Source of the DNA: Escherichia phage Psq-1
Length of the DNA: 44,183 bases
Sequence record: PQ595991.1
Direction: 5' to 3' (one strand)
Part shown: positions 4,704 to 43,606 of the stretch, in pieces
Position numbering within the stretch: position 1 is the first letter of the stretch
Layout of the letters: every line of letters starts with the position of its first letter
The notes under the pieces: model-generated
Databases searched by the model: none
The model's input: the letters and a program-made list of their open reading frames with translations, nothing else
Told to the model about the DNA's origin: nothing
Position numbers and translations under genes: made by a program

Positions 4704-6088
4704 TGCGTAACTATGCGGCAGAACACCGCGCACTGGAACGCGCGATCGCAAAGCGCAACAGACCACCACGCCCGACACGCGTTGCGCAGGCGGTGCGTCT
4801 TTACCAGCCTGATTGCTTGCCGCACCAGGTTGAACTATTGCGCGACACAAAGACTAAAATCCTCGGCCTGTGCTCTGGCTTCGGCGGCGGCAAGTCATGG
4901 GTCGCAGCCCGTAAGGTAATCCAGCTTTTAACCCTGAACCCTGGTCATGATGGCATCGTTACAGAGCCGACTATTCCACTCCTGGTTAAGATCATGTACC
5001 CGGAACTGGAGAAGGCATTCGACGAGGCTGGCTTCCGGTGGAAGTTCAATAAGCAGGACAAGATCTACAATGTGCTGGTGAAAGGCAAATGGACTCGCGT
5101 TATCTGTGAGTCAATGGAGAACTATACCCGCCTGATCGGTATCAACGCCGCGTGGATTGTTGCCGACGAGTTCGACACCACGAAGCAAGACGTCGCAATG
5201 GCGGCATACCACAAACTTCTCGGTCGTCTGCGTGCAGGCGTAGTCCGCCAGTTTGTCATAGTGTCCACGCCGGAAGGATTCCGGGCGATGTATCAAATTT
5301 TCGAGGTGGAGAAAGATAGCCAGAAACGCTTGATCCGGGCGAAGACCACGGACAACCACCATTTACCGGCAGACTTTATAGACACGCTTCGCAGTCAGTA
5401 CCCGGCTAACCTGATTGATGCGTACCTGAACGGCATGTTTGTTAACCTTACGTCGGGCGCGGTGTACAAGATGTTCAACCGCGAGGAGAACGCCAGCACC
5501 GAAGAAGTGCAGCCGGACGACACGCTGATTATCGGTATGGACTTTAACGTCACGAAAATGGCGGCGGTCGTGTATGTAAGACGGCAGCGTACCACCGAGA
5601 ACAAGGAGTTCCGCGACGAGATTCACGCGGTGGATGAATTTGTGGACCTGTTTGACACCCCGGCTATGATTGAGGCGATCGAGGAGCGCTACCCAGAACA
5701 TTGCGCCGCCGGTCGTGTTGTCGTTTACCCGGATAGCAGCGGCAAATCACGCAAGACGGTCAACGCGTCGTCGTCCGATATCGCACAACTGGAAGACGCG
5801 GGCTTCGATGTGGAATATGACAGCGTTAACCCGCCAGTGAAAGACCGATTGATCGCGATGAATACGATGATGTGCAACTCGAAGGGCGTTCGCCAGTATT
5901 TTGTCAACCTGGATAAATGCCCTACACTAGCGAAATGTCTGGAACAGCAGGTTTACGACCTGAAGAAAGGCGAGCCGGATAAAACCGCCGGTGTAGACCA
6001 CATGAACGATGCCGCGGGCTACCCTATTGCGCACTTGTTCCCTGTGATTCGTCCGATCGCCGTTGTTCCAACTGTAGACTTCTACTAA
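4703..6088 (+). CDS. terminase large subunit
   Basis: Walker A GFGGGKS, Walker B-like WIVADEFD, C-terminal nuclease-like region; 461 aa. Confidence 0.85.
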   Translation: MRNYAAEHRALERAIAKRNRPPRPTRVAQAVRLYQPDCLPHQVELLRDTKTKILGLCSGFGGGKSWVAARKVIQLLTLNPGHDGIVTEPTIPLLVKIMYPELEKAFDEAGFRWKFNKQDKIYNVLVKGKWTRVICESMENYTRLIGINAAWIVADEFDTTKQDVAMAAYHKLLGRLRAGVVRQFVIVSTPEGFRAMYQIFEVEKDSQKRLIRAKTTDNHHLPADFIDTLRSQYPANLIDAYLNGMFVNLTSGAVYKMFNREENASTEEVQPDDTLIIGMDFNVTKMAAVVYVRRQRTTENKEFRDEIHAVDEFVDLFDTPAMIEAIEERYPEHCAAGRVVVYPDSSGKSRKTVNASSSDIAQLEDAGFDVEYDSVNPPVKDRLIAMNTMMCNSKGVRQYFVNLDKCPTLAKCLEQQVYDLKKGEPDKTAGVDHMNDAAGYPIAHLFPVIRPIAVVPTVDFY

Positions 6089-13584: not shown

Positions 13585-14006
13585 TGAGCAATACTCTAAT
13601 CCGCAAGGCGCTTAACCGCGTGGTTGAAGAATTAGCGGTTAGCCTGAGCACTAGCCAGCGTCCGATCCAGGTTAACTGGGAGAACGTGAGCGGCGACCAC
13701 GCTAACGGCAATGGTGTATACCTGGAGCCGTACTTGCTACCGGCCCCGACCCAGTTTGTTGGCTTTCAGCAGAAAGGCCGGATCTATGCAGGCGTTTATC
13801 AGGTTGCAGTAGTGTTTCCCGCGGGCACGGGGACACAGTACGCGAGCGAACTGGCGGACTCCATCGCCACGTCGGATAAGTGGCAGGCAGTCAAGATCGC
13901 TGGCGCAGCGTTCCAGCTTCAGGACGCGCCATACACCAGTTCCGTGATTGAGGATGTAGACCGCGCACGCATCGTGGTTACAGTCCCCTACACATGTTGC
14001 GCCTGA
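13584..14006 (+). CDS. tail completion protein (putative, 140 aa)
   Basis: ATGA-overlapped ORF immediately before the major tail gene. Confidence 0.4.
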   Translation: MSNTLIRKALNRVVEELAVSLSTSQRPIQVNWENVSGDHANGNGVYLEPYLLPAPTQFVGFQQKGRIYAGVYQVAVVFPAGTGTQYASELADSIATSDKWQAVKIAGAAFQLQDAPYTSSVIEDVDRARIVVTVPYTCCA

Positions 14007-14862: not shown

Positions 14863-15225
14863 ATGGCAAAAGCACCACTCTTCACACTTGACCCTAAGCC
14901 GACCTTTAAGCTGCCGATTGAGATCCCGCGCCCCGGTGAAAACGAACCGGGGAAAATGACGTTTACCGTGCGCCACCGCCCGATCGACGAATTTTCGCAG
15001 ACCATGCAGGATACTGAGCGCAAGTTGTCGGAGTATGACGACAATGACCCTGACGGCTTTAACGTTATGGTCGAGGCCATCATGCACGTCGCAGAAGGCT
15101 GGAATCTACCAGACGAATTTAACGCGGAGAACGTCCGCCGCCTGGTGGTCAACTATCCGCGCGCGTTCGGCGTGTTCCACACTTCGTACTATCTCGAACT
15201 GATGGGATTGCGTGAAAAAAACTAA
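14863..15225 (+). CDS. tail assembly chaperone (lambda G-like)
   Basis: 121-aa ORF between the major tail and tape-measure genes, ending in the slippery heptamer A_AAA_AAC. Start at ATG 14863 (GGAG upstream). Confidence 0.65.
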   Translation: MAKAPLFTLDPKPTFKLPIEIPRPGENEPGKMTFTVRHRPIDEFSQTMQDTERKLSEYDDNDPDGFNVMVEAIMHVAEGWNLPDEFNAENVRRLVVNYPRAFGVFHTSYYLELMGLREKN

Positions 15226-15539
15226 TTGAGGCGGCGCGACGCTTTTATGGCCCGCCGCCACCATCCGAAGATTTAGCCGCGAGTTTATGGGGCGCGACCC
15301 CTGAAGACGTTTGCCCTCCGGTTGCACTATGGCCTGACAATGCGAAGGTAGTCGCAGTCTTCACAGATTGCTCCACGCAATGGCGTACCGGATTCGGTGG
15401 CGCATACGGCATCGACTACGGCGTACTGGAATGGTTATTTAATATGCACGGCATCGAAAACGCGCAACGTGCGTTTAAAGATATCAAGCTAATGGAACGC
15501 GTTGCGCTGGATGAAATGGCGCGGCAGAACCCCGCATAA
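14863..15539 (+). CDS. tail assembly chaperone frameshift product (lambda GT-like), -1 shift at 15216-15222
   Basis: The -1 frame is open, without an ATG, from the slippery site to TAA 15537-15539 and encodes ...AYGIDYGVLEWLFNMHGIENAQRAFKDIKLMERVALDEMARQNPA. A 7-bp GC stem (15230-15236 / 15253-15259) lies 7 nt downstream of the heptamer. Confidence 0.55.
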
Positions 15540-15540
15540 C

Positions 15541-15870
15541 GGAGCGGGACAGGCGGGACGTCCCGTTTTGTCACGCACCTCTAAAACTGCATATTTACTC
15601 ACCACAATTGCATAAACTAAAAGCGGGACAGGCGGGACGTCCCGTTTTGTCCCACCCCCAAAATGTGAATGTCTATTCAGTTTTAGTGCATAAAGTAAGC
15701 GGGACAAAAAGCGGGACAAACCAGGGGCGGGACAAAGTGGGACAGCACCCCCGTCCCCGTCAGTGCTGCCGCGGGTTTTAGCCGATCGGGACAGGCGGGA
15801 CAAACCCCAGTCTTTCAGACTAGACGGGGGTCAGTTGGCCCCCTCGTCTGAGACTGAATAAGGTTTGTTT
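15541..15870. repeat. iteron-like repeat element, copy A
   Basis: About 12 GCGGGACA/GGGACA boxes, two 30-bp direct repeats (15543-15572, 15622-15651) each holding the palindrome CGGGACGTCCCG, TGCATAAA boxes, and a GC-rich inverted repeat (15808-15856). Segment 15687-15861 recurs at 43050-43222. Confidence 0.6.
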
Positions 15871-15924
15871 TAAATTCGCTGATACAATGACCGACGGCAA
15901 CTGCATAAAAAGGGGGACTGCATA

Positions 15925-18567
15925 ATGGCAGATCAGGCAGCGGGCATCACGCTCAAGGCGGACGTCGCGCAAATTAAAACGGCTAATACTGTGCTGGACA
16001 CATTTGCGCAGAAATCCGAGAACACAGAACAGAAAGTAAAGAAATTAAACGACACACTCGGCAAGTCGAAAAAGGTTACTGGCGACGCCGCTGGCGGAAT
16101 GGAAAAGTTAGCGACTGAATCGCAGCGCGCCGCCGACGGCATGACGAAACAGGAGCGACTCGCCAGCCGATTAGGCATGTCGACCAAAAACCTGGGATTT
16201 GCATCGCGTAACGCCGCATTCCAGTTACAGGATATCGCGGTTACGCTTGAGATGGGTATGCCGGTGCACCGCGTCATGCTTCAGCAGCTACCACAGCTAA
16301 CCGGCGCATTTGGCGGACTGGGTAACACGCTGCGTTATGTTGCAGGATTCCTCGGCCCAGTAGGGATCGGACTTGCTGCCGTAACGGCGACGTTAGGCGT
16401 GGGCGTGGCAATTACGTCACGGGCAGAGAACCAGGTAGCCGCGCTTAATAAGACGCTGGCGCTGTCCGGTAATATCTCCGGCCTCACAGCTAACCAGATC
16501 CTGGTGCTGTCCGAGAACGCTGAGCGAATGGGCGGGTCATTTCGCAAGACGCGTGACACAATCCAGGCGCTGGCGGCGGCGGGTGTGAAAGCGGGTGGTG
16601 ACTTCGGCGCATTGGCTAAGGTAGTTAATGACTTTGCGAAGGTGTCCAGCCAGCCGATCGAGGATGTGGTGGCGGCGGTGGCGAAGCTGTCAACCGACCC
16701 CGTTGGCGGACTGCGTGCGCTGGCGGATAAGTATCACGTCGTAAACGAAGCGCAGATCCAGCAGGTACAGTCGCTCGTTGATGCGGGTCGTGAGACAGAC
16801 GCAGTTGCGCTGGCTAACAAAACAGCCGCTGCGTCGTTCACCAGCATGACCAATGAGATCAAGGCGAACATGGGTACGCTTGAGCGATCTATGAACGTCG
16901 TCACATCGGCAGCCAAATCAATGTGGGATGCCATCCTGGATGTGGGCCGCGCGCAGTCCTCCAATGAATCCGAGATGAAAGCGCGCGAATCACTGCAGCG
17001 GCTGACCACAGCTTACTATGCCGAGATGAAAGCGGTAAACGCTGCCGGTGGGGTAATGACTGAAGCGCAGAAAGCACGTATTAACATGCTTTACAGCGAA
17101 CTGGTCGCCCAGGAAAAAGTGGTGGCGTCGCTCACCCTTCGTAACCGTGCTGAGCGAGACAACGCCCGCGCCGCAGACGAATCCGCAAAGGCGAACGAGG
17201 AGGCCAACCGCACTGCCCGTGACCGCGCCGCGTTCGAGAAGGAATACGCCACCAACGCTAAGAAGCGCGCCGACGAGATCGCCCGCCTCAATTTGCTGAA
17301 TAAGCGTGGTGTTATTGACGAGAAAGAGCTTGCCGAGGCGGTGAAGCAGGTAAACGAGCGTTACAAAGACCCCGCCCCGAAGAAGGCCGCGGCTGTTCGC
17401 GTGGATGCCGGTATGAAAATGCTGGAAGTCGCACGGAGCGAACTGGCCCAGCTTCGAGAATCCGGCAAGCAGATCGAAGCCAACGCGTCTACGCAGACCC
17501 GCACGCAACGCGCTCAAGCGGCCTTAAACAAGCTGATCGCCGATAATGAGCAGTTAATCGCTGCGAGCAAAGAAAGAGCGCTAACGGCAGCAGAAAAGCA
17601 GCAATTAGTTGAGTTCGGGCGCGTGAAGGAAGTCCGCGAGCAGATCGTCGAAGAAGCCAAATTGCTGGATGCGAAAGAGCAGCAGGTTAAGGCGCACGCG
17701 CAGATCGATGCCTTCGTTAAGAACCAGAACGCCGAACTAAAAGCCACCGCCGCGGGGTATGCGCTTTCCACTCGCGAAGCGGCAAACCTGCGCGAAGAAT
17801 TGCAGCTAATTGACCGCCTGAAGCGGGTTGGCGCTAACGATACCGATATTGACAAGGCGGTGTCTAAGCTGCGAGAAGTGCAGGAAGCACAGACCGGCGC
17901 TAACGCCTCGTTATGGGATGGATTCAGTCGCGGGCTTAAGGATAGCGTGGATGAGATGGGTAACGGATATACGCAGATGGCGTCTCTCACGAAATTCACA
18001 TTCAGCGCTATGCAGGACACGATGAACGAGTTTTTCGAGACTGGCAAGCTGAACGCAAAGGATATGGTTAAGTCCATCCTGCGCGAATTAATCAAGCTGG
18101 CTACCTCGCAGGCGTTCAAGTCCATCGTTAGCGCTTTCGGTGGTGACGGCGGCAAAAACGGATTGTTCGGCGCTATCTTCTCTGGCCTTACTAAGAATGC
18201 GGACGGCGGAGCGTACGCAGGAGGCAATCTCGCGGCCTATTCGGGGAAAGTGGTAAGCCAGCCTACCTTTTTCAGTTATGGCGTCCAGGCGTTCGCTAAG
18301 GGCGCTGGGTTGATGGGTGAGGCTGGACCCGAGGCCATCATGCCACTGAAGCGCGGGCCGGACGGGAAACTGGGCGTTGCCGCGTCTGGCGCAGGCGGTG
18401 GTATGGTCGTGACGACTAACGTTTACACGGGGACCGGTAAGACGGATACCAGTGTGAGCGGACCGGACCCACGCACCGCGCAGGCGTTCGGAAAGCAAAT
18501 CACCGAGTCGGTCAAGGCCGAGATTGTGAAGGCGACGAAACCGGGTGGTGTACTTTACAAACGATGA
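15925..18567 (+). CDS. tail tape measure protein (880 aa)
   Basis: Long alpha-helical, A/E/K/Q-rich ORF with Gly-rich C-terminal region, downstream of the G/GT chaperone. Confidence 0.85.
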   Translation: MADQAAGITLKADVAQIKTANTVLDTFAQKSENTEQKVKKLNDTLGKSKKVTGDAAGGMEKLATESQRAADGMTKQERLASRLGMSTKNLGFASRNAAFQLQDIAVTLEMGMPVHRVMLQQLPQLTGAFGGLGNTLRYVAGFLGPVGIGLAAVTATLGVGVAITSRAENQVAALNKTLALSGNISGLTANQILVLSENAERMGGSFRKTRDTIQALAAAGVKAGGDFGALAKVVNDFAKVSSQPIEDVVAAVAKLSTDPVGGLRALADKYHVVNEAQIQQVQSLVDAGRETDAVALANKTAAASFTSMTNEIKANMGTLERSMNVVTSAAKSMWDAILDVGRAQSSNESEMKARESLQRLTTAYYAEMKAVNAAGGVMTEAQKARINMLYSELVAQEKVVASLTLRNRAERDNARAADESAKANEEANRTARDRAAFEKEYATNAKKRADEIARLNLLNKRGVIDEKELAEAVKQVNERYKDPAPKKAAAVRVDAGMKMLEVARSELAQLRESGKQIEANASTQTRTQRAQAALNKLIADNEQLIAASKERALTAAEKQQLVEFGRVKEVREQIVEEAKLLDAKEQQVKAHAQIDAFVKNQNAELKATAAGYALSTREAANLREELQLIDRLKRVGANDTDIDKAVSKLREVQEAQTGANASLWDGFSRGLKDSVDEMGNGYTQMASLTKFTFSAMQDTMNEFFETGKLNAKDMVKSILRELIKLATSQAFKSIVSAFGGDGGKNGLFGAIFSGLTKNADGGAYAGGNLAAYSGKVVSQPTFFSYGVQAFAKGAGLMGEAGPEAIMPLKRGPDGKLGVAASGAGGGMVVTTNVYTGTGKTDTSVSGPDPRTAQAFGKQITESVKAEIVKATKPGGVLYKR

Positions 18568-33298: not shown

Positions 33299-33322
33299 AA
33301 AAAATGGCGGGACAAGCCCGCC
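33299..33322 (-). terminator. rho-independent terminator or attenuator on the minus strand
   Basis: Minus strand reads GGCGGG-CTTGT-CCCGCC then ATTTTTTGG; the stem contains a GCGGGACA box. Confidence 0.4.
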
Positions 33323-33822: not shown

Positions 33823-36113
33823 TATTTTCTGTACCTGTACATAATGTCGCCTTCCGCGGCAAGCGGGAAGCCTTTCGCCCAAACAGGGAGGTCGCACATC
33901 AGCGCGCACAACTCCTCGGTTGTGTAGTCGTCAGTATCCGGCACTTCGGTTATCAGTTCATCGTGTACGGACAGTACGATCTCATATCCCGCAGATTCAA
34001 CGCCCGGCATGGACCATGCGAGGATATCGCGGCACAGAGCCTGCACGATGTTTTCCGTCAGTTTGCCGCCGTAGGTGTACTGGAATCCCCACTGGCGCGT
34101 CGTCTGATTCTCACCCTGATATTTAATGCGGGTGCTGGTGCGCTTCTTGCCGGTGTCTTCGTCGATCTCGGTCGTGACAGACAGCGCGATGCCCGGATAA
34201 CTCATGATGCGCCCCGACGGCAACTCGATTTTCAACCACCACCCCGCGGCGTTCGGGTCGTCGCGCTCCTCGTCGAAGGTGGGGTCGTGCTTCGCCTTCG
34301 TGCGGACTATCTTGAGCGCTTTCTTGCCATCAGGGCGAACGTTCGCGCCAGCCCAGTACGCTTTGCCCGGATTGCGGATCGCGCAGAGCACCGCGTCTTC
34401 CAGTTCAGCCCAAAATGCTACCGTCTTCGGGTGCGACTCGCGCCACATACGTTTGATCGCATCACACGTCAACCATACGTTTTTCGGCAGTATATAAGTT
34501 GGGCGCTCGTCCTTCTTGCCAGGCTTCGGCGGGCGCTTCGCTTCGTTAATGCGGGCATATTCATAACCACGTTTCGCCGCAGCCCAAATATGATCGGGGA
34601 ATGTACCCTTCATGACGTCCGCCATCGCATACAGGTCTAGACCCAGGTTTTTAGCGAACTGCAAGAACGCCGCAACGCCGCCGCCATAGCCTAGTCCCAA
34701 TTCGCACGCCTTACCGATCTGGCGTAAGTCTTTGCGGTTGGCTTTAATGTATTCCGGGTCGAGGCCAAACATCTTACCGGCAGTTTCACAATAAATATCG
34801 CGACCGGCCTTAAACACCATTAGCGCGGTTTTCTCGCCAGCGACCCAGGCAAGCCCGCGTCCTTCCACGTTGGAATAGTCCGCTACGACAAACTTCTTGC
34901 CCTTCGCCGGAATAATGCACCCGCGAACGGTCGAGGCCGTTAGCTTCGATATGTCATACGCCCAGTGCGCTGTCCCGCGTAACAGGGAATTGATGCCGTT
35001 GGTAAGCATGTGCGACCGGACCCAAAAAGAAACGTCGCTCTCGCCTTCACGGCGTTTAATCTTCCCTTCGTGGTCGTCGCTATACTCGCCGCGTGCCAGG
35101 TTTTGAGGTTGAAAGCCTTTACCGGCCCAGCGTAGCGTGCGCTTTGCCCCACCATACTGAAGACAACCACGGCGGCGACCATCGGCGGACAGGCCATTGA
35201 CAAGCGGATTGTATTTAGTAGATGCCGTTGATGACGCACCGAGGCGCATTTCGATAAGCGCTTTGCCTTCGTCGGGGAAATCCGGGTCTTCCAGCAGGTC
35301 GTTAAGCGTGGATTTCTGCGCGTTGTGGATTGTGAACGCAGGCGCGAGGTCGCGCAGCGCTGGCAGGAAGTCATTGCCGGTCAGCTTACCACCGAAGCGC
35401 TCCCAGGCTTCTTCCTTCAACTCTTCCTTATGCGCCTGCACCGCTTTGATCGCAGCGCGCGCCAGGTCAACGTCCACGTAGAAGCCGCGGTCGTTAATCA
35501 ATTGGTCGATAAGCAGGATTTCGTCTTCCTTCGGCGTATTACCCCAGTCCGGTATGCGCCAATAGACTTCCCTCATCGCGATGATGTCCAGCGCGGCATA
35601 GCGCAGGAATTTAGCCCACTCCTCGGGGTGCGTCTTGCGCGTGTAGCGGCGGATTTTGTAGGTCTTAGGGGTAGGCTTACAGAATCGTTTAATCAGCGCC
35701 TTGCCTGCCTTATCCTTCGCGTGTTCTGCGTCAACACCCAACACCTGGCATTGCATATCGAGGCTACCCGGCAGCGCGTGTCGAAAGGCCATAATCATGG
35801 TATCTTCGATCTGGCACACTGGCAGATCTATACCCCACTTTTCGCGAATAACCAGGCGGTCAAACAGGAGGCCGTTAGCCATCACTATTTTTGCTTTCTT
35901 GCGGGATACACGGCGGAGCGCCTTGCGCAGTTCGCGCGGCATCGTAGGGGATTCGGTGCAATCCCAGGTCTGTACGCGGCCCTCGTCGATGGCGTAGGTG
36001 CAGATCATAATCTCGGTTGTCGGGTGCTCTGCGTAGGCGTATGCGCCAACTTTCTTCAGGTCTACCCCGCTAAATGTCTCGGTATCGAGAAACAGGCGTT
36101 TGAAGTCTTTCAT
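33822..36113 (-). CDS. DNA polymerase I-type (family A) with 3'-5' exonuclease domain
   Basis: ATG 36113 with GAGGA upstream; exo motif FLDTETFS near the N-terminus; 763 aa with a family A polymerase-like C-terminal half. Confidence 0.8.
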   Translation of the reverse strand: MKDFKRLFLDTETFSGVDLKKVGAYAYAEHPTTEIMICTYAIDEGRVQTWDCTESPTMPRELRKALRRVSRKKAKIVMANGLLFDRLVIREKWGIDLPVCQIEDTMIMAFRHALPGSLDMQCQVLGVDAEHAKDKAGKALIKRFCKPTPKTYKIRRYTRKTHPEEWAKFLRYAALDIIAMREVYWRIPDWGNTPKEDEILLIDQLINDRGFYVDVDLARAAIKAVQAHKEELKEEAWERFGGKLTGNDFLPALRDLAPAFTIHNAQKSTLNDLLEDPDFPDEGKALIEMRLGASSTASTKYNPLVNGLSADGRRRGCLQYGGAKRTLRWAGKGFQPQNLARGEYSDDHEGKIKRREGESDVSFWVRSHMLTNGINSLLRGTAHWAYDISKLTASTVRGCIIPAKGKKFVVADYSNVEGRGLAWVAGEKTALMVFKAGRDIYCETAGKMFGLDPEYIKANRKDLRQIGKACELGLGYGGGVAAFLQFAKNLGLDLYAMADVMKGTFPDHIWAAAKRGYEYARINEAKRPPKPGKKDERPTYILPKNVWLTCDAIKRMWRESHPKTVAFWAELEDAVLCAIRNPGKAYWAGANVRPDGKKALKIVRTKAKHDPTFDEERDDPNAAGWWLKIELPSGRIMSYPGIALSVTTEIDEDTGKKRTSTRIKYQGENQTTRQWGFQYTYGGKLTENIVQALCRDILAWSMPGVESAGYEIVLSVHDELITEVPDTDDYTTEELCALMCDLPVWAKGFPLAAEGDIMYRYRK

Positions 36114-40223: not shown

Positions 40224-40553
40224 ATGAATATCGACGACGCAATCGAAATGTTAACTAAGACTGTTTGCAGTGAGACTAGCCGGTCTTGGGCATATACAGA
40301 TGCCGTTGGGGCGGTGCTATTTGAAATCGAACGTCTGCGACTTACCGAAAAAGAATTGCGCGCGAAGCTGGAATTACTCAACGGTACGGCAGCCAGCAAG
40401 CTGCAAAAGCACAATGAAGAAATGGAAGAATACAAAAAACAGGTTATCCGTTTGCGCGATGAGGGGAAGTCATGGGCGATGATCGCCGAGTTGACAGGAA
40501 TTAATCAGAGCACCGTGCGCTCCTGGGTACGCAATAACAAAACTTCGAAATAA
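40224..40553 (+). CDS. HTH domain protein, putative regulator (109 aa)
   Basis: C-terminal HTH GKSWAMIAELTGINQSTVRSWVRNNK; coiled-coil middle; first gene of the plus-strand early unit. Confidence 0.5.
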   Translation: MNIDDAIEMLTKTVCSETSRSWAYTDAVGAVLFEIERLRLTEKELRAKLELLNGTAASKLQKHNEEMEEYKKQVIRLRDEGKSWAMIAELTGINQSTVRSWVRNNKTSK

Positions 40554-40723
40554 GGCAACGGCAATGAGCTTAATTAAATTCGCTGTAACAAGACCCTCAT
40601 GGGCGATGATCGCCGAGTTGACAGGAATTAATCAGAGCACCGTGCGCTCCTGGGTACGCAATAACAAAACTTCGAAATAAGGCAACGGCAATGAGCTTAA
40701 TTAAATTCGCTGTAACAAGACCC
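40470..40723. repeat. exact 127-bp tandem duplication (40470-40596 and 40597-40723)
   Basis: Both copies read identically by eye; they span the last 28 codons of the HTH gene and the first 11 codons of the primase gene. Confidence 0.9.
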
Positions 40724-42955
40724 GCTAAAAAAGGCGAAAAAGCCAGGGCGGAAAACTTCCAGATGACAACTGATGAATTTTTCGAATTTATCAATGACGC
40801 GAAAGAAATCTCATCGGTGCACATCAACAAGACCGAGGATAAAGCTGAGTATGCGCGCCGCAAGCGCAAGGCCGATGGCATCGTGGCATATACCAGTGAC
40901 GGCCTACGCCGTAAGACCAGCGCGGTGGACCGCTCGATCCTGTTCTTTGATATTGACCGCACCGACACTCGCACCTTGCGCCGCTGCCGTAAGGCGTTCA
41001 TTGACGCGGGTCTGGAACACGTATTCCACACAACCACCGGCGATCGCCACCCGCTGAAAGGCGGCACGCGTTGCGCCCGTTTCCTTGTGCTCACAGATAA
41101 ACCAGTACCGGCGGAAGACCTGGGCCGCGTCCAGTACGCGCTGTTAGACCAACTTGGTCTGTCAGATGTGGACTTCGACGATTGTACGAAGGACACAAAC
41201 CGTCTTATGTACCTGCCACACCAGCAGTCTGTCATTAAGTGCCACCACGGCAAACGTGCCAATGTGCGGCGTCTGCTACGCCTGGCGGATAAGCTGGGAG
41301 TGGAGAAAGAGGAAGTACGCCGCGAGCTTACCCAGGGCGACGACGCAGTGGCGGACGGGATTCTGGACTGGTGCTTCCAGGCAGGATTCGAGGAGTTATC
41401 TTCCGGTCGCGGTTATGAAGTTCCGTGCCCGAACGAACATCTGCACAGCGGCGAAGGGTCGACGGCTATCATGGTCAAGGATGGCGAGATCCGTTTCAAG
41501 TGTATGCACACCGGCAACGAGTGTTGCTCGGAGCTAAATAGACACCAGCACCTTGCGCTACGTCTCATCGGGATACCGGACCACCTGAACGTCGAGCCGC
41601 ACAACATGTCACGTAAGCAAATCGCCGCCATCCTGCCAGGTCTGGACGACGAGGAAGTCGAATCCTTATATGACCACATTGTTGATGCGGTTGGCGACGG
41701 CGAAGAATATGGCGTGTGCACCGATGCGGATCTTGATAACGAGCCGGTTGCGCTGTTCAGTAAGCACGACCCGATCATCGAGGGGTTGATTAACTTTAAA
41801 TCGACCTGGTACATGGCGGGTGAGTCGAATATCGGTAAGTCTTTCTATGTGCTGGGGCAGATGGGCGCGGTTGCCGCCGGTATTCCGTTTGGCGGTGCGA
41901 AGGTCGTCCAGTCGCATTGCTTCTATTTCGATGCGGAAGGCGGCGAAGCCTCCAACCAGCGCAAAGAAGCATTGCAGATTAAATATGAGCACGACCTGGA
42001 CAAGCTGCACATTATAGACCTGCAGTCACGCGGCTGGGATATCACCAGCAAGTCCGGTTTGCGCGAAGTTATCAGCTTTATCAACCGCACCGCTAACGGC
42101 GAACCGGTTGGCCTGGTGGCGTTCGACTCACTTAACCAGACTGTTGCGCTGCGGTCCGCCGATGCTAAACCGTTTGACGAGAACAACGCCAGCGATATGG
42201 GAGAAGTGGTCAAAGCGCTGAAAGCCATTGCGGAAAATACAGGTGGCAGTGCGGGCGTCATCCACCACCCGGCGAAAGGTGCAAACGGCAGCAGAACCCC
42301 ACGCGGATCCGGCGCACTGCATGGTGCTGTCGATTCAGCTTTCTTCCTGGAACAGCCGGACGACAACCAGCCAGGACAACTCAACCTGTATCACGAAAAA
42401 TCACGTAATGGCATCAAGCAAGCGCCGCGTGGCTTCGTCCTGCTCAAGTGCAAGGTGGAGGTGGATCTCCGCAAGTCAGAAGCGTTCGCGTCGCACCAGT
42501 CCACCAGCACCGGGCCGGACTTCGGAGACGTCGTTGCCGGTTGGGACGTCAAACCAATTGCGTCCACCCCGCGCGACGAGACTCTGTACCTCGTACCAGT
42601 AGCCCTGGCACCGTTCGCTATAGAACAGGCAAAGGCCGCTGGCAAAGCCGCAGTTAAGGAAGAAAACGCCGCCGGTCCGCGCAACGAAAAAGAGAAAGTG
42701 CTTTATGCGGCCCTGGAAAAACTGATGGAAGATAACCCTAACCATACTGGATTCAGTAAATCGGCAATTGTCCGCCAGGCGGGACTCGCGAAGGGTGGTA
42801 CTTCGACGAAAGCAATCGACGATATGGTGGAGCGTGGCGTGATTGGTTTTTATACAGATCCGCACACCGGGGCCATATATGGGTCGTCGAATTTAGTCAT
42901 CAAATCGGATATTCCCATAACGCTTTCGGCGACCGACGACGACCTGAAGGATTAA
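40691..42955 (+). CDS. DNA primase/helicase-type replication protein (754 aa)
   Basis: Zn-binding-like HLHSGEGS...FKCMHTGNECC; P-loop GESNIGKS and Walker B-like LVAFDSLNQ in the C-terminal half. Confidence 0.6.
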   Translation: MSLIKFAVTRPAKKGEKARAENFQMTTDEFFEFINDAKEISSVHINKTEDKAEYARRKRKADGIVAYTSDGLRRKTSAVDRSILFFDIDRTDTRTLRRCRKAFIDAGLEHVFHTTTGDRHPLKGGTRCARFLVLTDKPVPAEDLGRVQYALLDQLGLSDVDFDDCTKDTNRLMYLPHQQSVIKCHHGKRANVRRLLRLADKLGVEKEEVRRELTQGDDAVADGILDWCFQAGFEELSSGRGYEVPCPNEHLHSGEGSTAIMVKDGEIRFKCMHTGNECCSELNRHQHLALRLIGIPDHLNVEPHNMSRKQIAAILPGLDDEEVESLYDHIVDAVGDGEEYGVCTDADLDNEPVALFSKHDPIIEGLINFKSTWYMAGESNIGKSFYVLGQMGAVAAGIPFGGAKVVQSHCFYFDAEGGEASNQRKEALQIKYEHDLDKLHIIDLQSRGWDITSKSGLREVISFINRTANGEPVGLVAFDSLNQTVALRSADAKPFDENNASDMGEVVKALKAIAENTGGSAGVIHHPAKGANGSRTPRGSGALHGAVDSAFFLEQPDDNQPGQLNLYHEKSRNGIKQAPRGFVLLKCKVEVDLRKSEAFASHQSTSTGPDFGDVVAGWDVKPIASTPRDETLYLVPVALAPFAIEQAKAAGKAAVKEENAAGPRNEKEKVLYAALEKLMEDNPNHTGFSKSAIVRQAGLAKGGTSTKAIDDMVERGVIGFYTDPHTGAIYGSSNLVIKSDIPITLSATDDDLKD

Positions 42956-43049
42956 ATTTTGCGCGCATTGGTTGCCATTTTGAGTGTTTTTAGCTGGTCG
43001 CATTGGTTGCCGTGTAGTGTAAAAATATTGAATAGTTATGCAATAAAAC

Positions 43050-43222
43050 TGCATAAAGTAAGCGGGACAAAAAGCGGGACAGACCAGGGGCGGGACAAAG
43101 CGGGACAGCACCCCCGTCCCGCCCCGGATGACGCGGCCTGGCGAGGAGCGGGACAGGCGGGACAACTACCAGTCTTTCAGACTAGACGGGGGTCAACGGC
43201 CCCCCTCGTCTGAGACTGCATA
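43050..43222. repeat. iteron-like repeat element, copy B
   Basis: Six GCGGGACA boxes, a TGCATAAA box, inverted GTCCCGC...GCGGGAC, and the same GC-rich inverted repeat as copy A (43170-43217). AT-rich stretch at 43021-43050. Confidence 0.6.
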
Positions 43223-43370
43223 AAATCCGGGATTGCAAAATACACGGCAGCACATTGTAAATTGCGGTCGTCGCGGAACTAGGCAACCAATGCGGGATGC
43301 AGAACGTGGTGTGAAAAATGCAGTCACAGCAGATAGCGATCAACTTTTTCATACGCGTGATTAATATTGG

Positions 43371-43399
43371 TTGCATTCACCTCGGCGCCTTGCTATATT
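43371..43399 (+). promoter_or_regulatory. sigma70-like promoter built from two ATTGGTTGCA boxes
   Basis: -35 TTGCAT (43371-43376), 17-bp spacer, -10 TATATT (43394-43399). Confidence 0.4.
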
Positions 43400-43426
43400 G
43401 GTTGCACACCAACAGGAGGGCGGAAC

Positions 43427-43606
43427 ATGAAAACCGAAATGGTTGATAAGCACGAAATCAAGATCGGCGATACGGTAGTCCACAACGGGGGGCTTCGCAC
43501 TGTGTGCAAGCGAGCGTTTAGCATCGATGAATTTATGGGACTGCTACTTTGGGGCGACAGCTATCGTTTAGGGTATAAACTGGTTGAGAGGGTTACGGAA
43601 CGATGA
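43427..43606 (+). CDS. hypothetical early protein (59 aa)
   Basis: ATG 43427 preceded by AACAGGAGGG. Confidence 0.45.
   Translation: MKTEMVDKHEIKIGDTVVHNGGLRTVCKRAFSIDEFMGLLLWGDSYRLGYKLVERVTER

Follow-up and report, generated by a model that had tools for sequence, protein, structure and literature searches.

Region A of Escherichia phage Psq-1, a box-and-hairpin gap between two tail genes, as a candidate second replication-origin module

We analysed the non-coding gap between the tail assembly chaperone gene and the tape-measure (TMP) gene of Escherichia phage Psq-1 (PQ595991.1). The whole stretch of 44,183 nucleotides is referred to as the window, and positions follow its numbering. The source genome is a Dhillonvirus, i.e. 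an HK578/SO-1-like virulent E. coli siphovirus, and 158 phage records match the gap region at 80-96% identity. The chaperone frame G is extended into GT at the slippery sequence A AAA AAC (15215-15221), where a -1 slip enters a T frame that is open to 15539. The GT stop lies at 15537-15539 and the TMP open reading frame (ORF; 880 aa) starts with the ATG at 15925, so that the 385-bp gap described in an earlier note on this DNA is real and runs from 15540 to 15924. That the two genes normally abut is also borne out, as TMP starts 2 nt past the T frame in a more distant relative (locus L184). The same note held that no annotated feature explains the element, and this does not hold for every record. 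The record of Sodalis phage SO-1 (GQ502199) carries two repeat regions, region A in the gp16-gp17 gap and region B after gp48, which are annotated as direct, inverted and palindromic repeats that are mutually similar and are given a 'possible' function, and the HK578 record has a terminator at the first palindrome. A literature search found no published analysis of the SO-1 regions A and B. We use the name region A for the gap, which contains the following features, and copy B for the second occurrence of its main module.

14863-15539, plus strand: tail assembly chaperone G (14863-15225; DUF1789/DUF1799) and its GT frameshift extension
15540-15924, plus strand: region A (SO-1 'region A'), the whole non-coding gap between GT and TMP
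15543-15579, plus strand: repeat unit 1, two direct boxes (GCGGGACA, GCGGGAC) plus an inverted box, giving the palindrome CGGGACGTCCCG, then TTTTGTC
15573-15621: AT-rich spacer 1 (65% AT) with TGCATAT and TGCATAA boxes, a candidate DNA-unwinding element
15622-15658, plus strand: repeat unit 2, 92% identical to unit 1
15655-15697: AT-rich spacer 2 (65% AT), ending in GTGCATAAAGTAA, where the module common with copy B begins
15699-15744, plus strand: boxes 1-4 (GCGGGACA three times, then GTGGGACA), with GGGAC start-to-start distances of 12, 16 and 10 nt, the same in copy B
15739-15757, plus strand: box 4 with an inverted box, GGGAC-AGCACCCCC-GTCCC, a pairing that is GGGACGTCCC in other phages
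15786-15802, plus strand: boxes 5-6 (CGGGACA, GCGGGACA), 9 nt apart and 48-49 nt past box 4 in both copies
15808-15856, plus strand: long imperfect hairpin of 49 nt, CAGTCTTTCAGACTAGACGGGGG-loop-CCCCCTCGTCTGAGACTG
15880-15888, plus strand: predicted extended -10 sigma-70 promoter TGaTACAAT, no -35, about 30 nt upstream of the TMP ribosome-binding site and start codon
15909-15927, plus strand: ribosome-binding site (AAGGGGGA) and TMP start codon (ATG at 15925)

Region A is dense in one short box. There are 15 exact occurrences of GCGGGACA in the window where 1.95 are expected (none of 100 shuffles reached 15), and six of them are in the gap (15544, 15623, 15699, 15711, 15727 and 15795). Counting the core GGGAC on both strands gives 15 in the gap, 11 on the plus strand (one within the ribosome-binding site) and 4 inverted, where the rest of the window would predict 0.32 (Poisson P ~2e-20). 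The earlier count of about 12 boxes is thus upheld, with the six GCGGGACA standing where they had been listed. The two direct repeats described as 30 bp long exist too, but they are longer, at 37 nt with 92% identity, and each does contain the palindrome CGGGACGTCCCG. The AT-rich DNA reported in the gap takes the form of 65% AT blocks that alternate with GC-rich blocks of about 30-35% AT. Read from left to right, region A has two direct boxes and one inverted, a 65% AT stretch, two direct and two inverted boxes, a second 65% AT stretch, four direct boxes and one inverted, a spacer, and two direct boxes. It has therefore an iteron-type layout, in which boxes, some of them inverted, flank AT-rich DNA. 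Outside the two modules, the isolated GCGGGACA at 33307-33314 sits in a small GC hairpin (GGCGGGacaagCCCGCC) with A/T runs on either side, between minus-strand genes, and is probably a terminator and not an iteron. Those at 34971 and 38727 are within coding sequence.

The TGCATAA-like boxes that the earlier note had pointed out are found exactly at 15609, 15687, 15902 and 15919. Boxes of the form (N)TGCATAA flank the iteron sets in both copies, these four being joined by sites at 15588, 43050 and 43217 (and by 13780-13815 in locus L266). Compared with the reverse complement of TGTGNAWAA, the DnaA-box consensus, they agree at 7-8 of 9 positions, the first two being variable, and could possibly be sites for a host factor. 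We rejected TGCATAA as a sigma-54 or other special promoter, since inspection showed no -24 GG element. We also set aside the likeness (16/18) of TTAAATTCGCTG(A/T)(T/A)ACAA to 40574/40701, which is in gp48 coding sequence and at the level estimated for chance in a 44-kb self-comparison.

Many Dhillonvirus records (NHEP3, B2, CEC_Kaz_2018 and Ioannina among them) have one to three 'hypothetical protein' coding sequences called in the gap. These are likely over-predictions, because the gap ORFs (57 aa on the plus strand, 104 aa on the minus strand) have no counterpart among the PHROG families, nor are their frames conserved: 1-nt indels disrupt them in close relatives. A search of the gap for tRNA and tmRNA genes found none.

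The element is present in the gap as the earlier note had it, but it is not specific to the gap, and a second copy had been missed, as had the link to gp48 and the invariant extended -10 (15880-15888) that precedes TMP. A module of about 195 bp (15666-15861) has a second occurrence on the same strand, at 43029-43223, with 78-88% identity and identical box spacing. This copy B follows an operon of two genes, listed here with it.

40224-40553, plus strand: gp47, a small helix-turn-helix (HTH) protein (HTH_23, Sigma70_r4_2), first gene of the gp47-gp48 operon
40691-42955, plus strand: gp48, a primase-helicase of 754 aa and proposed initiator, with an AAA_25 core at residues 357-531
42686-42901, plus strand: predicted C-terminal winged helix of gp48 (residues ~666-737), from fold prediction
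43029-43223, plus strand: copy B (SO-1 'region B'), starting about 75 nt past the gp48 stop

The order of parts is identical in the two copies: an AT-rich lead with GCATAAAGTAA at its end is followed by four boxes and an inverted one, then by a GC-rich spacer, boxes 5-6 and the hairpin. The 158 Dhillonvirus records hold 328 module places, or about two per genome. There are thus two modules of repeats and AT-rich DNA, one in the replication module and one in the late region, which is the pattern of phage SPP1. The first box of copy B lies 107 nt past the gp48 stop, and its six direct boxes and one inverted box stand directly 3' of the proposed initiator gene, a position and number (at least six) like those of the origins of staphylococcal pathogenicity islands (SaPI). 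Copy A is not beside gp48; it is 27 kb away, or 17 kb round the circle. Because region A has 15 boxes and copy B has 7, region A may be the stronger binding region. The hairpin-loop variant TCTGGCAC is seen both in copy B of SO-1 (L003 40387) and in copy A of another phage (L136/L176), which suggests exchange, by gene conversion or recombination, between copies or between phages. A search of plasmids with the module gave no match.

Conservation in related phages, one of the checks proposed earlier, was found: the module is kept in the 158 Dhillonvirus records and in related clades. It is under strong purifying selection. We computed nucleotide diversity (pi) over 15-16 Dhillonvirus genomes, and obtained 0.000-0.006 over the 41 nt of the hairpin arms and 0.29 in the 8-nt loop, while the flanking genes have 0.19-0.25 at third codon positions and 0.01-0.04 at first and second positions. 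Among 32 distinct hairpin variants from both copies, variation is limited to the loop and the bulge. The GC-rich inverted repeat noted at 15808-15856 is indeed a strong fold, its 49 nt giving -27.7 kcal/mol (z = -5.25) in an RNA fold and -11.8 kcal/mol (z = -3.8) in a DNA fold. It is followed by AATAAGG in copy A and by CATAAAATCC in copy B, with no T-run. The hairpins (43170-43218 and 15808-15856) also give the phage a layout of the pRN1 type, i.e. a conserved stem-loop 3' of an operon that encodes a small DNA-binding protein and a primase-helicase. Elsewhere in region A, pairs of box and inverted box are kept through differing sequences (GGGACGTCCC vs GGGACAGgggtgCTGTCCC; GGGAC-AGCACCCC-GTCCC vs GGGACGTCCCGCC). 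For example, GGGACAGgggtgCTGTCCC replaces repeat unit 2 in other Dhillonviruses, and the pairing is retained with a different sequence. The check for covariation gave a divided answer. There is no signal within Dhillonvirus, where the test is powerless because the arms are invariant, and support comes only from the hairpins of L181, eiAU and the sister clade L160-L167.

Four related clades keep the layout that follows the primase-helicase gene, with four different boxes: GCGGGACA, TCGCCCCG, TTGCGAGT and GGGGAGA. The L157/L181 clade (68% identity) has both copies with the box GCGGGACA, and its L181 stem shows a compensatory change from A-T to G-C, identified by eye. Edwardsiella phage eiAU (Eiauvirus), whose primase-helicase is 45% identical, has a large GT-TMP gap too. 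A like layout stands there directly before TMP with the box (T)CGCCCCG (TCGCCCCG), and 3' of the primase-helicase orthologue the module is only partly matched, again with the box TCGCCCCG. The eiAU hairpin has an unchanged upper stem (GACGGGGG / CCCC-T-CGTC) and a lower stem that differs yet is complementary. In the L160-L167 clade (48% identity), TTGCGAGT occurs in both orientations 3' of the primase gene, together with a long hairpin of its own in which 4 of 28 pairs are compensatory and 0 are broken (from only three distinct sequences). The TMP region of this clade was sought through major-tail-protein and major-capsid-protein patterns, but the clade has a different structural module. Finally, Cornellvirus FSL SP-031 (44% identity) has a single module directly 3' of the primase gene, made of six direct and one inverted GGGGAGA box, and no gap before TMP. 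The sequence TGAATAGTTATGCA, related to GTGCATAAAGTAA, is kept in copy B, in L157/L181 and in SP-031. The position 3' of the primase gene would hence be the general and ancestral one, and the tail-operon copy would be derived in the Dhillonvirus/Eiauvirus lineage, because the clades keep the former, SP-031 has one copy and the L184 TMP abuts GT. In eiAU (L128 42365-42718) and in L181 (~4990-5345), a reverse-strand ORF (moron) was acquired in the GT-TMP gap. This would make the gap a hot spot for insertions, like the SPP1 oriR segment.

The candidate reader of the boxes is gp48. Like SaPI initiators, it combines a helicase with a C-terminal winged helix, the latter as a prediction. Homology with the SaPI Rep (AAA+, SF3/MCM-like) was not found, as gp48 is a RecA-type AAA_25 protein, and the system appears to be like SaPI in its working and not a member by descent. 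The only PDB sequence match of gp48 is RSF1010 RepA (E = 0.53). Its tail is the sole part of the protein that cannot be aligned with the eiAU orthologue, and the start of the putative recognition helix changes with the box group (TSTKAI, RKKFQEGW, NYKKVL and DRYKIL). According to a recent preprint (10.64898/2026.07.10.737580), the HK578 orthologue Gp46 and its promoter have replication-initiation functions; mutations that escape the OLD defence map to gp46 and to the promoter, and the authors tie OLD to hairpin-forming origin iterons. The first protein of the operon, gp47, is an alternative candidate, either as the binder of the boxes or as an autoregulator of the operon. In Psq-1 an exact tandem duplication of 127 bp (40470-40723, 100%) extends from the 3' end of gp47 across the intergenic region into gp48, of which it includes the first 33 nt. 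The gp47-gp48 distance is therefore 137 nt here, compared with 10 nt in SO-1. The duplication either arose very recently or is an assembly artefact, and it sits in the operon to which the OLD-escape promoter deletion of HK578 maps.

Box arrays of the same kind are found in unrelated viruses. An exact scan of IMG/VR for GCGGGACA-N4-GCGGGACA gave at least 120 loci, and the matches listed include 7 Dhillonvirus and 113 unrelated loci. In many unrelated loci among the matches listed, non-coding DNA is packed with boxes, at 8-17 per 300 bp, and such arrays often end in a hairpin with inverted-box arms. When the ORFs of the window were compared with the 113 unrelated loci listed, only gp48 recurred, at 15 loci and through its helicase core. 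Homologues of gp48 were sought with the full-length query, the tail fragment alone having retrieved only 2 proteins. At 13 of the 15 loci the array starts 4-100 nt past the stop, with 0-1 boxes in the 1200 bp upstream. A second search round gave 23 loci with a helicase match, and the array was at the 3' end of the gene in about 19 of them. The array-linked proteins are AAA_25 helicases fused to Toprim and Zn-ribbon, Prim-Pol or unassigned primase domains. Members of a second family, of P-loop proteins, end 2 nt before GGGACA arrays, and two IMG/VR loci (L051 and L076) encode a 165-aa DnaA domain IV protein (Bac_DnaA_C, E = 2e-25) about 260 nt upstream of such arrays. As they adjoin genes for AAA_25 helicases, P-loop proteins and DnaA domain IV, the arrays thus seem tied to replication-initiation genes and not to tail genes or regulators. 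Three other IMG/VR loci (L055, L013 and L120) have long tandem 12-mers (GGGACAGCGTGY / GGGCCAGCGTG) that are not iteron arrays; these may lie within ORFs and encode repetitive peptides.

Taken together, these patterns make it probable, with considerable room for doubt, that region A is a second copy of the iteron-type replication-origin module of the phage. The earlier note had proposed four roles, and the comparative evidence favours its protein-binding iterons and 'second origin', since the module lies 3' of the primase-helicase gene, the box varies with the winged-helix tail and GGGACA arrays follow AAA_25 genes. A role as terminators fits in part, and a free-standing structured RNA does not. 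Such an arrangement is already known from SPP1; in this phage group the origin is predicted from sequence. The 8-nt GCGGGACA boxes, direct and inverted, would be sites for the C-terminal winged helix of gp48, acting as a self-loading initiator, and the AT-rich stretches between box clusters would be candidate sites of melting. The invariant stem-loop may serve as a signal for loading or priming, or it may be a duplex site recognised by its sequence. The copy 3' of gp48 would be the ancestral origin and the GT-TMP copy a duplicate fixed in Dhillonvirus/Eiauvirus. The weak terminator-like palindromes upstream may part region A from late transcription, which the extended -10 would restart into TMP. 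Region A itself could then be a second initiation site, or an initiator-bound barrier that aids the switch from theta replication to concatemers, by analogy with SPP1 oriR.

Several observations weigh against this interpretation, in which binding of the boxes by gp48, firing of the module as an origin and the role of the second copy are all things that we infer. No experimental evidence of binding or origin activity has been reported for any Dhillonvirus, and the preprint on HK578 (10.64898/2026.07.10.737580) contains no origin map. The GC skew has no inflection at either copy, although it is uninformative because the skew follows the coding strand. As the hairpin arms are invariant in Dhillonvirus, there is no covariation to tell a fold from a sequence-specific duplex site. 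The winged-helix tails of unrelated GGGACA-array contigs carry KKKAFQRA and that of gp48 carries TSTKAIDD, so the same box comes with no common recognition sequence. The protein gp47 is also unrelated between Dhillonvirus and eiAU, so that the co-variation of box and protein does not point to gp48 alone. For about 37 strong GGGACA arrays, no gp48-type helicase could be detected in the neighbourhood, some of the loci being truncated and some following other protein families. Finally, both copies have the same orientation and are upstream of promoters, which would also fit a role in transcription.

The best of the other explanations, though we consider it unlikely, is transcriptional control. 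The boxes would be operators for a regulator such as gp47, and together with the hairpin they would gate two operon boundaries, from early to middle/late genes at copy B and from proximal to distal tail genes at copy A. Both copies do lie on the coding strand at boundaries of transcription units, each upstream of a predicted promoter (TGATACAAT at 15880; TTGCAT-N17-TATATT at 43370-43403). As predicted from sequence, region A has terminator-like palindromes on its upstream side and the extended -10 on its downstream side. This TGaTACAAT is invariant in the 15-16 genomes and was not flagged by a simple -35/-10 scan, and a canonical terminator stands directly after GT in L141, Ioannina and L181. 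In addition, gp47 is an HTH protein like sigma-70 region 4 that differs between clades with different boxes. Against this, the predicted starts lie about 100 nt downstream of the centre of boxes 5-6, and the 49-nt hairpin separates them, an arrangement not typical of sigma-70 activators. In the unrelated loci listed there is no gp47 homologue near the GGGACA arrays, whereas the helicase recurs, and the Cornellvirus module is single and follows the primase gene. The genome-wide promoter motif is also a different one, TTGGTTGC.

That motif has 19 sites where 1.8 are expected, usually as intergenic pairs (e.g. 2489/2512, 9944/9958, 28941/28952, 30600/30617, 37125/37141, 42968/43003 and 43367/43398). 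The sites form a phage sigma-70 promoter family, TTGGTTGCA-N17-TATAKT, of which the member at 43367-43403 precedes the ATG at 43428. The motif is kept as GCAACCAAC in eiAU and occurs also in L157, L181 and SP-031-like loci. Its TTGG extension may be an operator.

A cis-acting RNA on the late mRNA is a less credible alternative, and we regard it as improbable. In this view the hairpin would serve for RNase III processing or for stabilisation, or else as an antitermination signal of the put/nut type, and an RNA-binding protein would recognise GGGAC. The great stability of the RNA fold, its place on the sense strand in both copies, a loop that varies freely, and the compensatory pairs (four, with none broken) in the sister-clade hairpin are all consistent with this. 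However, a search of the gap against Rfam 15 found nothing near the gathering score (best match mir-4433, 19.8 bits vs 77, E = 1.4). The L160 clade and many unrelated arrays have boxes in either orientation, which points to recognition of duplex DNA, and the arms are invariant in sequence and not merely in pairing. The box is wholly swapped between clades although the hosts stay enterobacterial, which makes a host RNA-binding protein such as CsrA unlikely; eiAU boxes have no GGA. The free-standing structured RNA of the earlier note is thus not supported, on account of the lack of an Rfam match, the two box orientations in sister clades and the box swaps. The related idea of a CsrA sponge or small RNA, based on the GGA in GGGACA, was dropped because the boxes of eiAU, L160 and SP-031 lack GGA, and because boxes are found in both orientations.

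It is very unlikely that the gap consists of tandem intrinsic terminators only, which would keep TMP and the distal tail genes at a lower expression than the chaperones and the major tail protein. The palindromes at 15554-15572 and 15633-15651 have stems of 4-6 bp followed by TTTTGTC and weakly resemble terminators. Repeat unit 1 (pi = 0.13) looks like a weak terminator, and its equivalent in HK578 is annotated as rho-independent; repeat unit 2 is terminator-like on the minus strand in a terminator scan. The tandem weak terminators proposed earlier are hence plausible for these two upstream palindromes (CGGGACGTCCCG then TTTTGTC), but not for the long hairpin, which has no conserved T-run. Of the 385 bp, terminators would account for no more than 60, a T-run is missing from the second unit in many Dhillonviruses (GATCTGTCCC), the best-conserved parts (boxes 5-6 and hairpin) lack a conserved T-tract, and the module after gp48 would be left unexplained.

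The pac site of phage P1 is loosely like the layout of four plus two boxes, and several records break in or beside region A (eiAU, UAE_MI-01 in the hairpin loop, Maverick and PNS1). Even so, a packaging signal or physical end (pac or cos) in the gap is the least credible explanation of all and was rejected, as the break points vary by record and coincide with repeats, as assembly breaks would, giving no reproducible terminus, PhageTerm analyses indicate headful packaging of circularly permuted genomes (PMC9022532), the sole cos claim (ATCTTAAGGG, in EE09) is elsewhere in the EE09 genome and that sequence is absent from the window, and two pac sites of the same orientation per genome would be unusual. 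The Sponge record is also linearised in or beside region A, and that of eiAU is cut within a run of GCAACCAAC repeats. The record breaks at region A are probably assembly breaks at the A/B repeat and not physical ends.

If region A is a second origin module, this accounts for the split, in this lineage, of the normally abutting GT and TMP genes. It also puts two candidate origins at 15.54-15.92 kb and 43.03-43.22 kb, points to gp48 residues ~666-737 as a candidate reader and supplies defined boxes, in a group of phages (HK578, SO-1 and several BASEL phages) that is now widely used in work on anti-phage defence. For uncultivated phages, it suggests a rule for finding origins: a short-box array with a hairpin directly 3' of an AAA_25 primase-helicase gene. 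A broader and more speculative proposal, which we put forward as a doubtful possibility, is that box arrays with a hairpin 3' of AAA_25 winged-helix primase-helicases represent a widespread undescribed class of self-loading replicons. Box and recognition helix would be swapped together (a single family of enterobacterial siphoviruses has four box types, and many unrelated viral contigs have GGGACA arrays), the tail-operon duplicate of Dhillonvirus/Eiauvirus would be a barrier or second origin that times the concatemer switch, and the palindromic iterons might be the single-stranded DNA hairpin that triggers OLD or Lamassu. The escape mutations of HK578, in gp46 and in the gp46 promoter, would agree with this last idea.

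Among known systems, Bacillus phage SPP1 offers a close arrangement of two copies. It has two similar origins, both bound by the initiator: oriL in the replication module and oriR, which interrupts the order of virion-assembly genes and is flanked by transcription signals, with a proposed role in fork stalling and the theta-to-sigma switch (PMC6316719). With terminator-like palindromes predicted upstream and a promoter predicted downstream, region A may follow the pattern of oriR. Like Psq-1, it is a virulent siphovirus of about 44 kb with two copies of direct repeats plus an unwinding element that is rich in AT, and it has morons beside oriR, as eiAU and L181 have a reverse-strand ORF in the gap. 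It differs in having a separate origin binder (gp38), loader (gp39) and DnaB-type helicase (gp40), where here a single primase-helicase is the candidate. In SPP1, oriL is within gene 38 and not downstream of it, the repeats are unrelated in sequence, and binding is a prediction here. The regions A and B of SO-1 (GQ502199) are the same element, known from annotation only and with no link made to the primase-helicase tail or to other clades.

Other systems resemble the gene layout. The origin of plasmid pRN1 is a stem-loop just 3' of the orf56/orf904 operon (repressor and primase-helicase) that is essential and works when moved, and its authors mention similar arrangements in several bacteriophages (PMC4234260). 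The likeness lies in the operon of a small DNA-binding protein and a primase-helicase with a stem-loop downstream. However, pRN1 is archaeal, ORF904 is an SF3 helicase, no iteron array is reported and the stem-loop has ~100 nt vs 49 nt here. In the Rep/ori system of SaPI, a self-loading helicase reads, with its C-terminal winged helix, 6-12 iterons of 5-6 nt directly 3' of rep, around an AT-rich centre (PMC9371898). Some of these iterons are inverted, specificity is swapped between related elements and the primase is adjacent or fused, as would hold for the phages studied here. In contrast, Rep is AAA+ (SF3/MCM-like) and gp48 is a RecA-type AAA_25 protein, the iterons have 5-6 nt vs 7-8 nt here, and SaPI have one ori where Psq-1 has two copies with a terminal invariant hairpin. 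In satellite phage P4, the alpha protein is a D5/SF3-type primase-helicase, and ori and crr are 4.5 kb apart vs 17-27 kb here. These two clusters of octamer iterons are both needed in cis, and they are read by the C-terminal winged helix of alpha.

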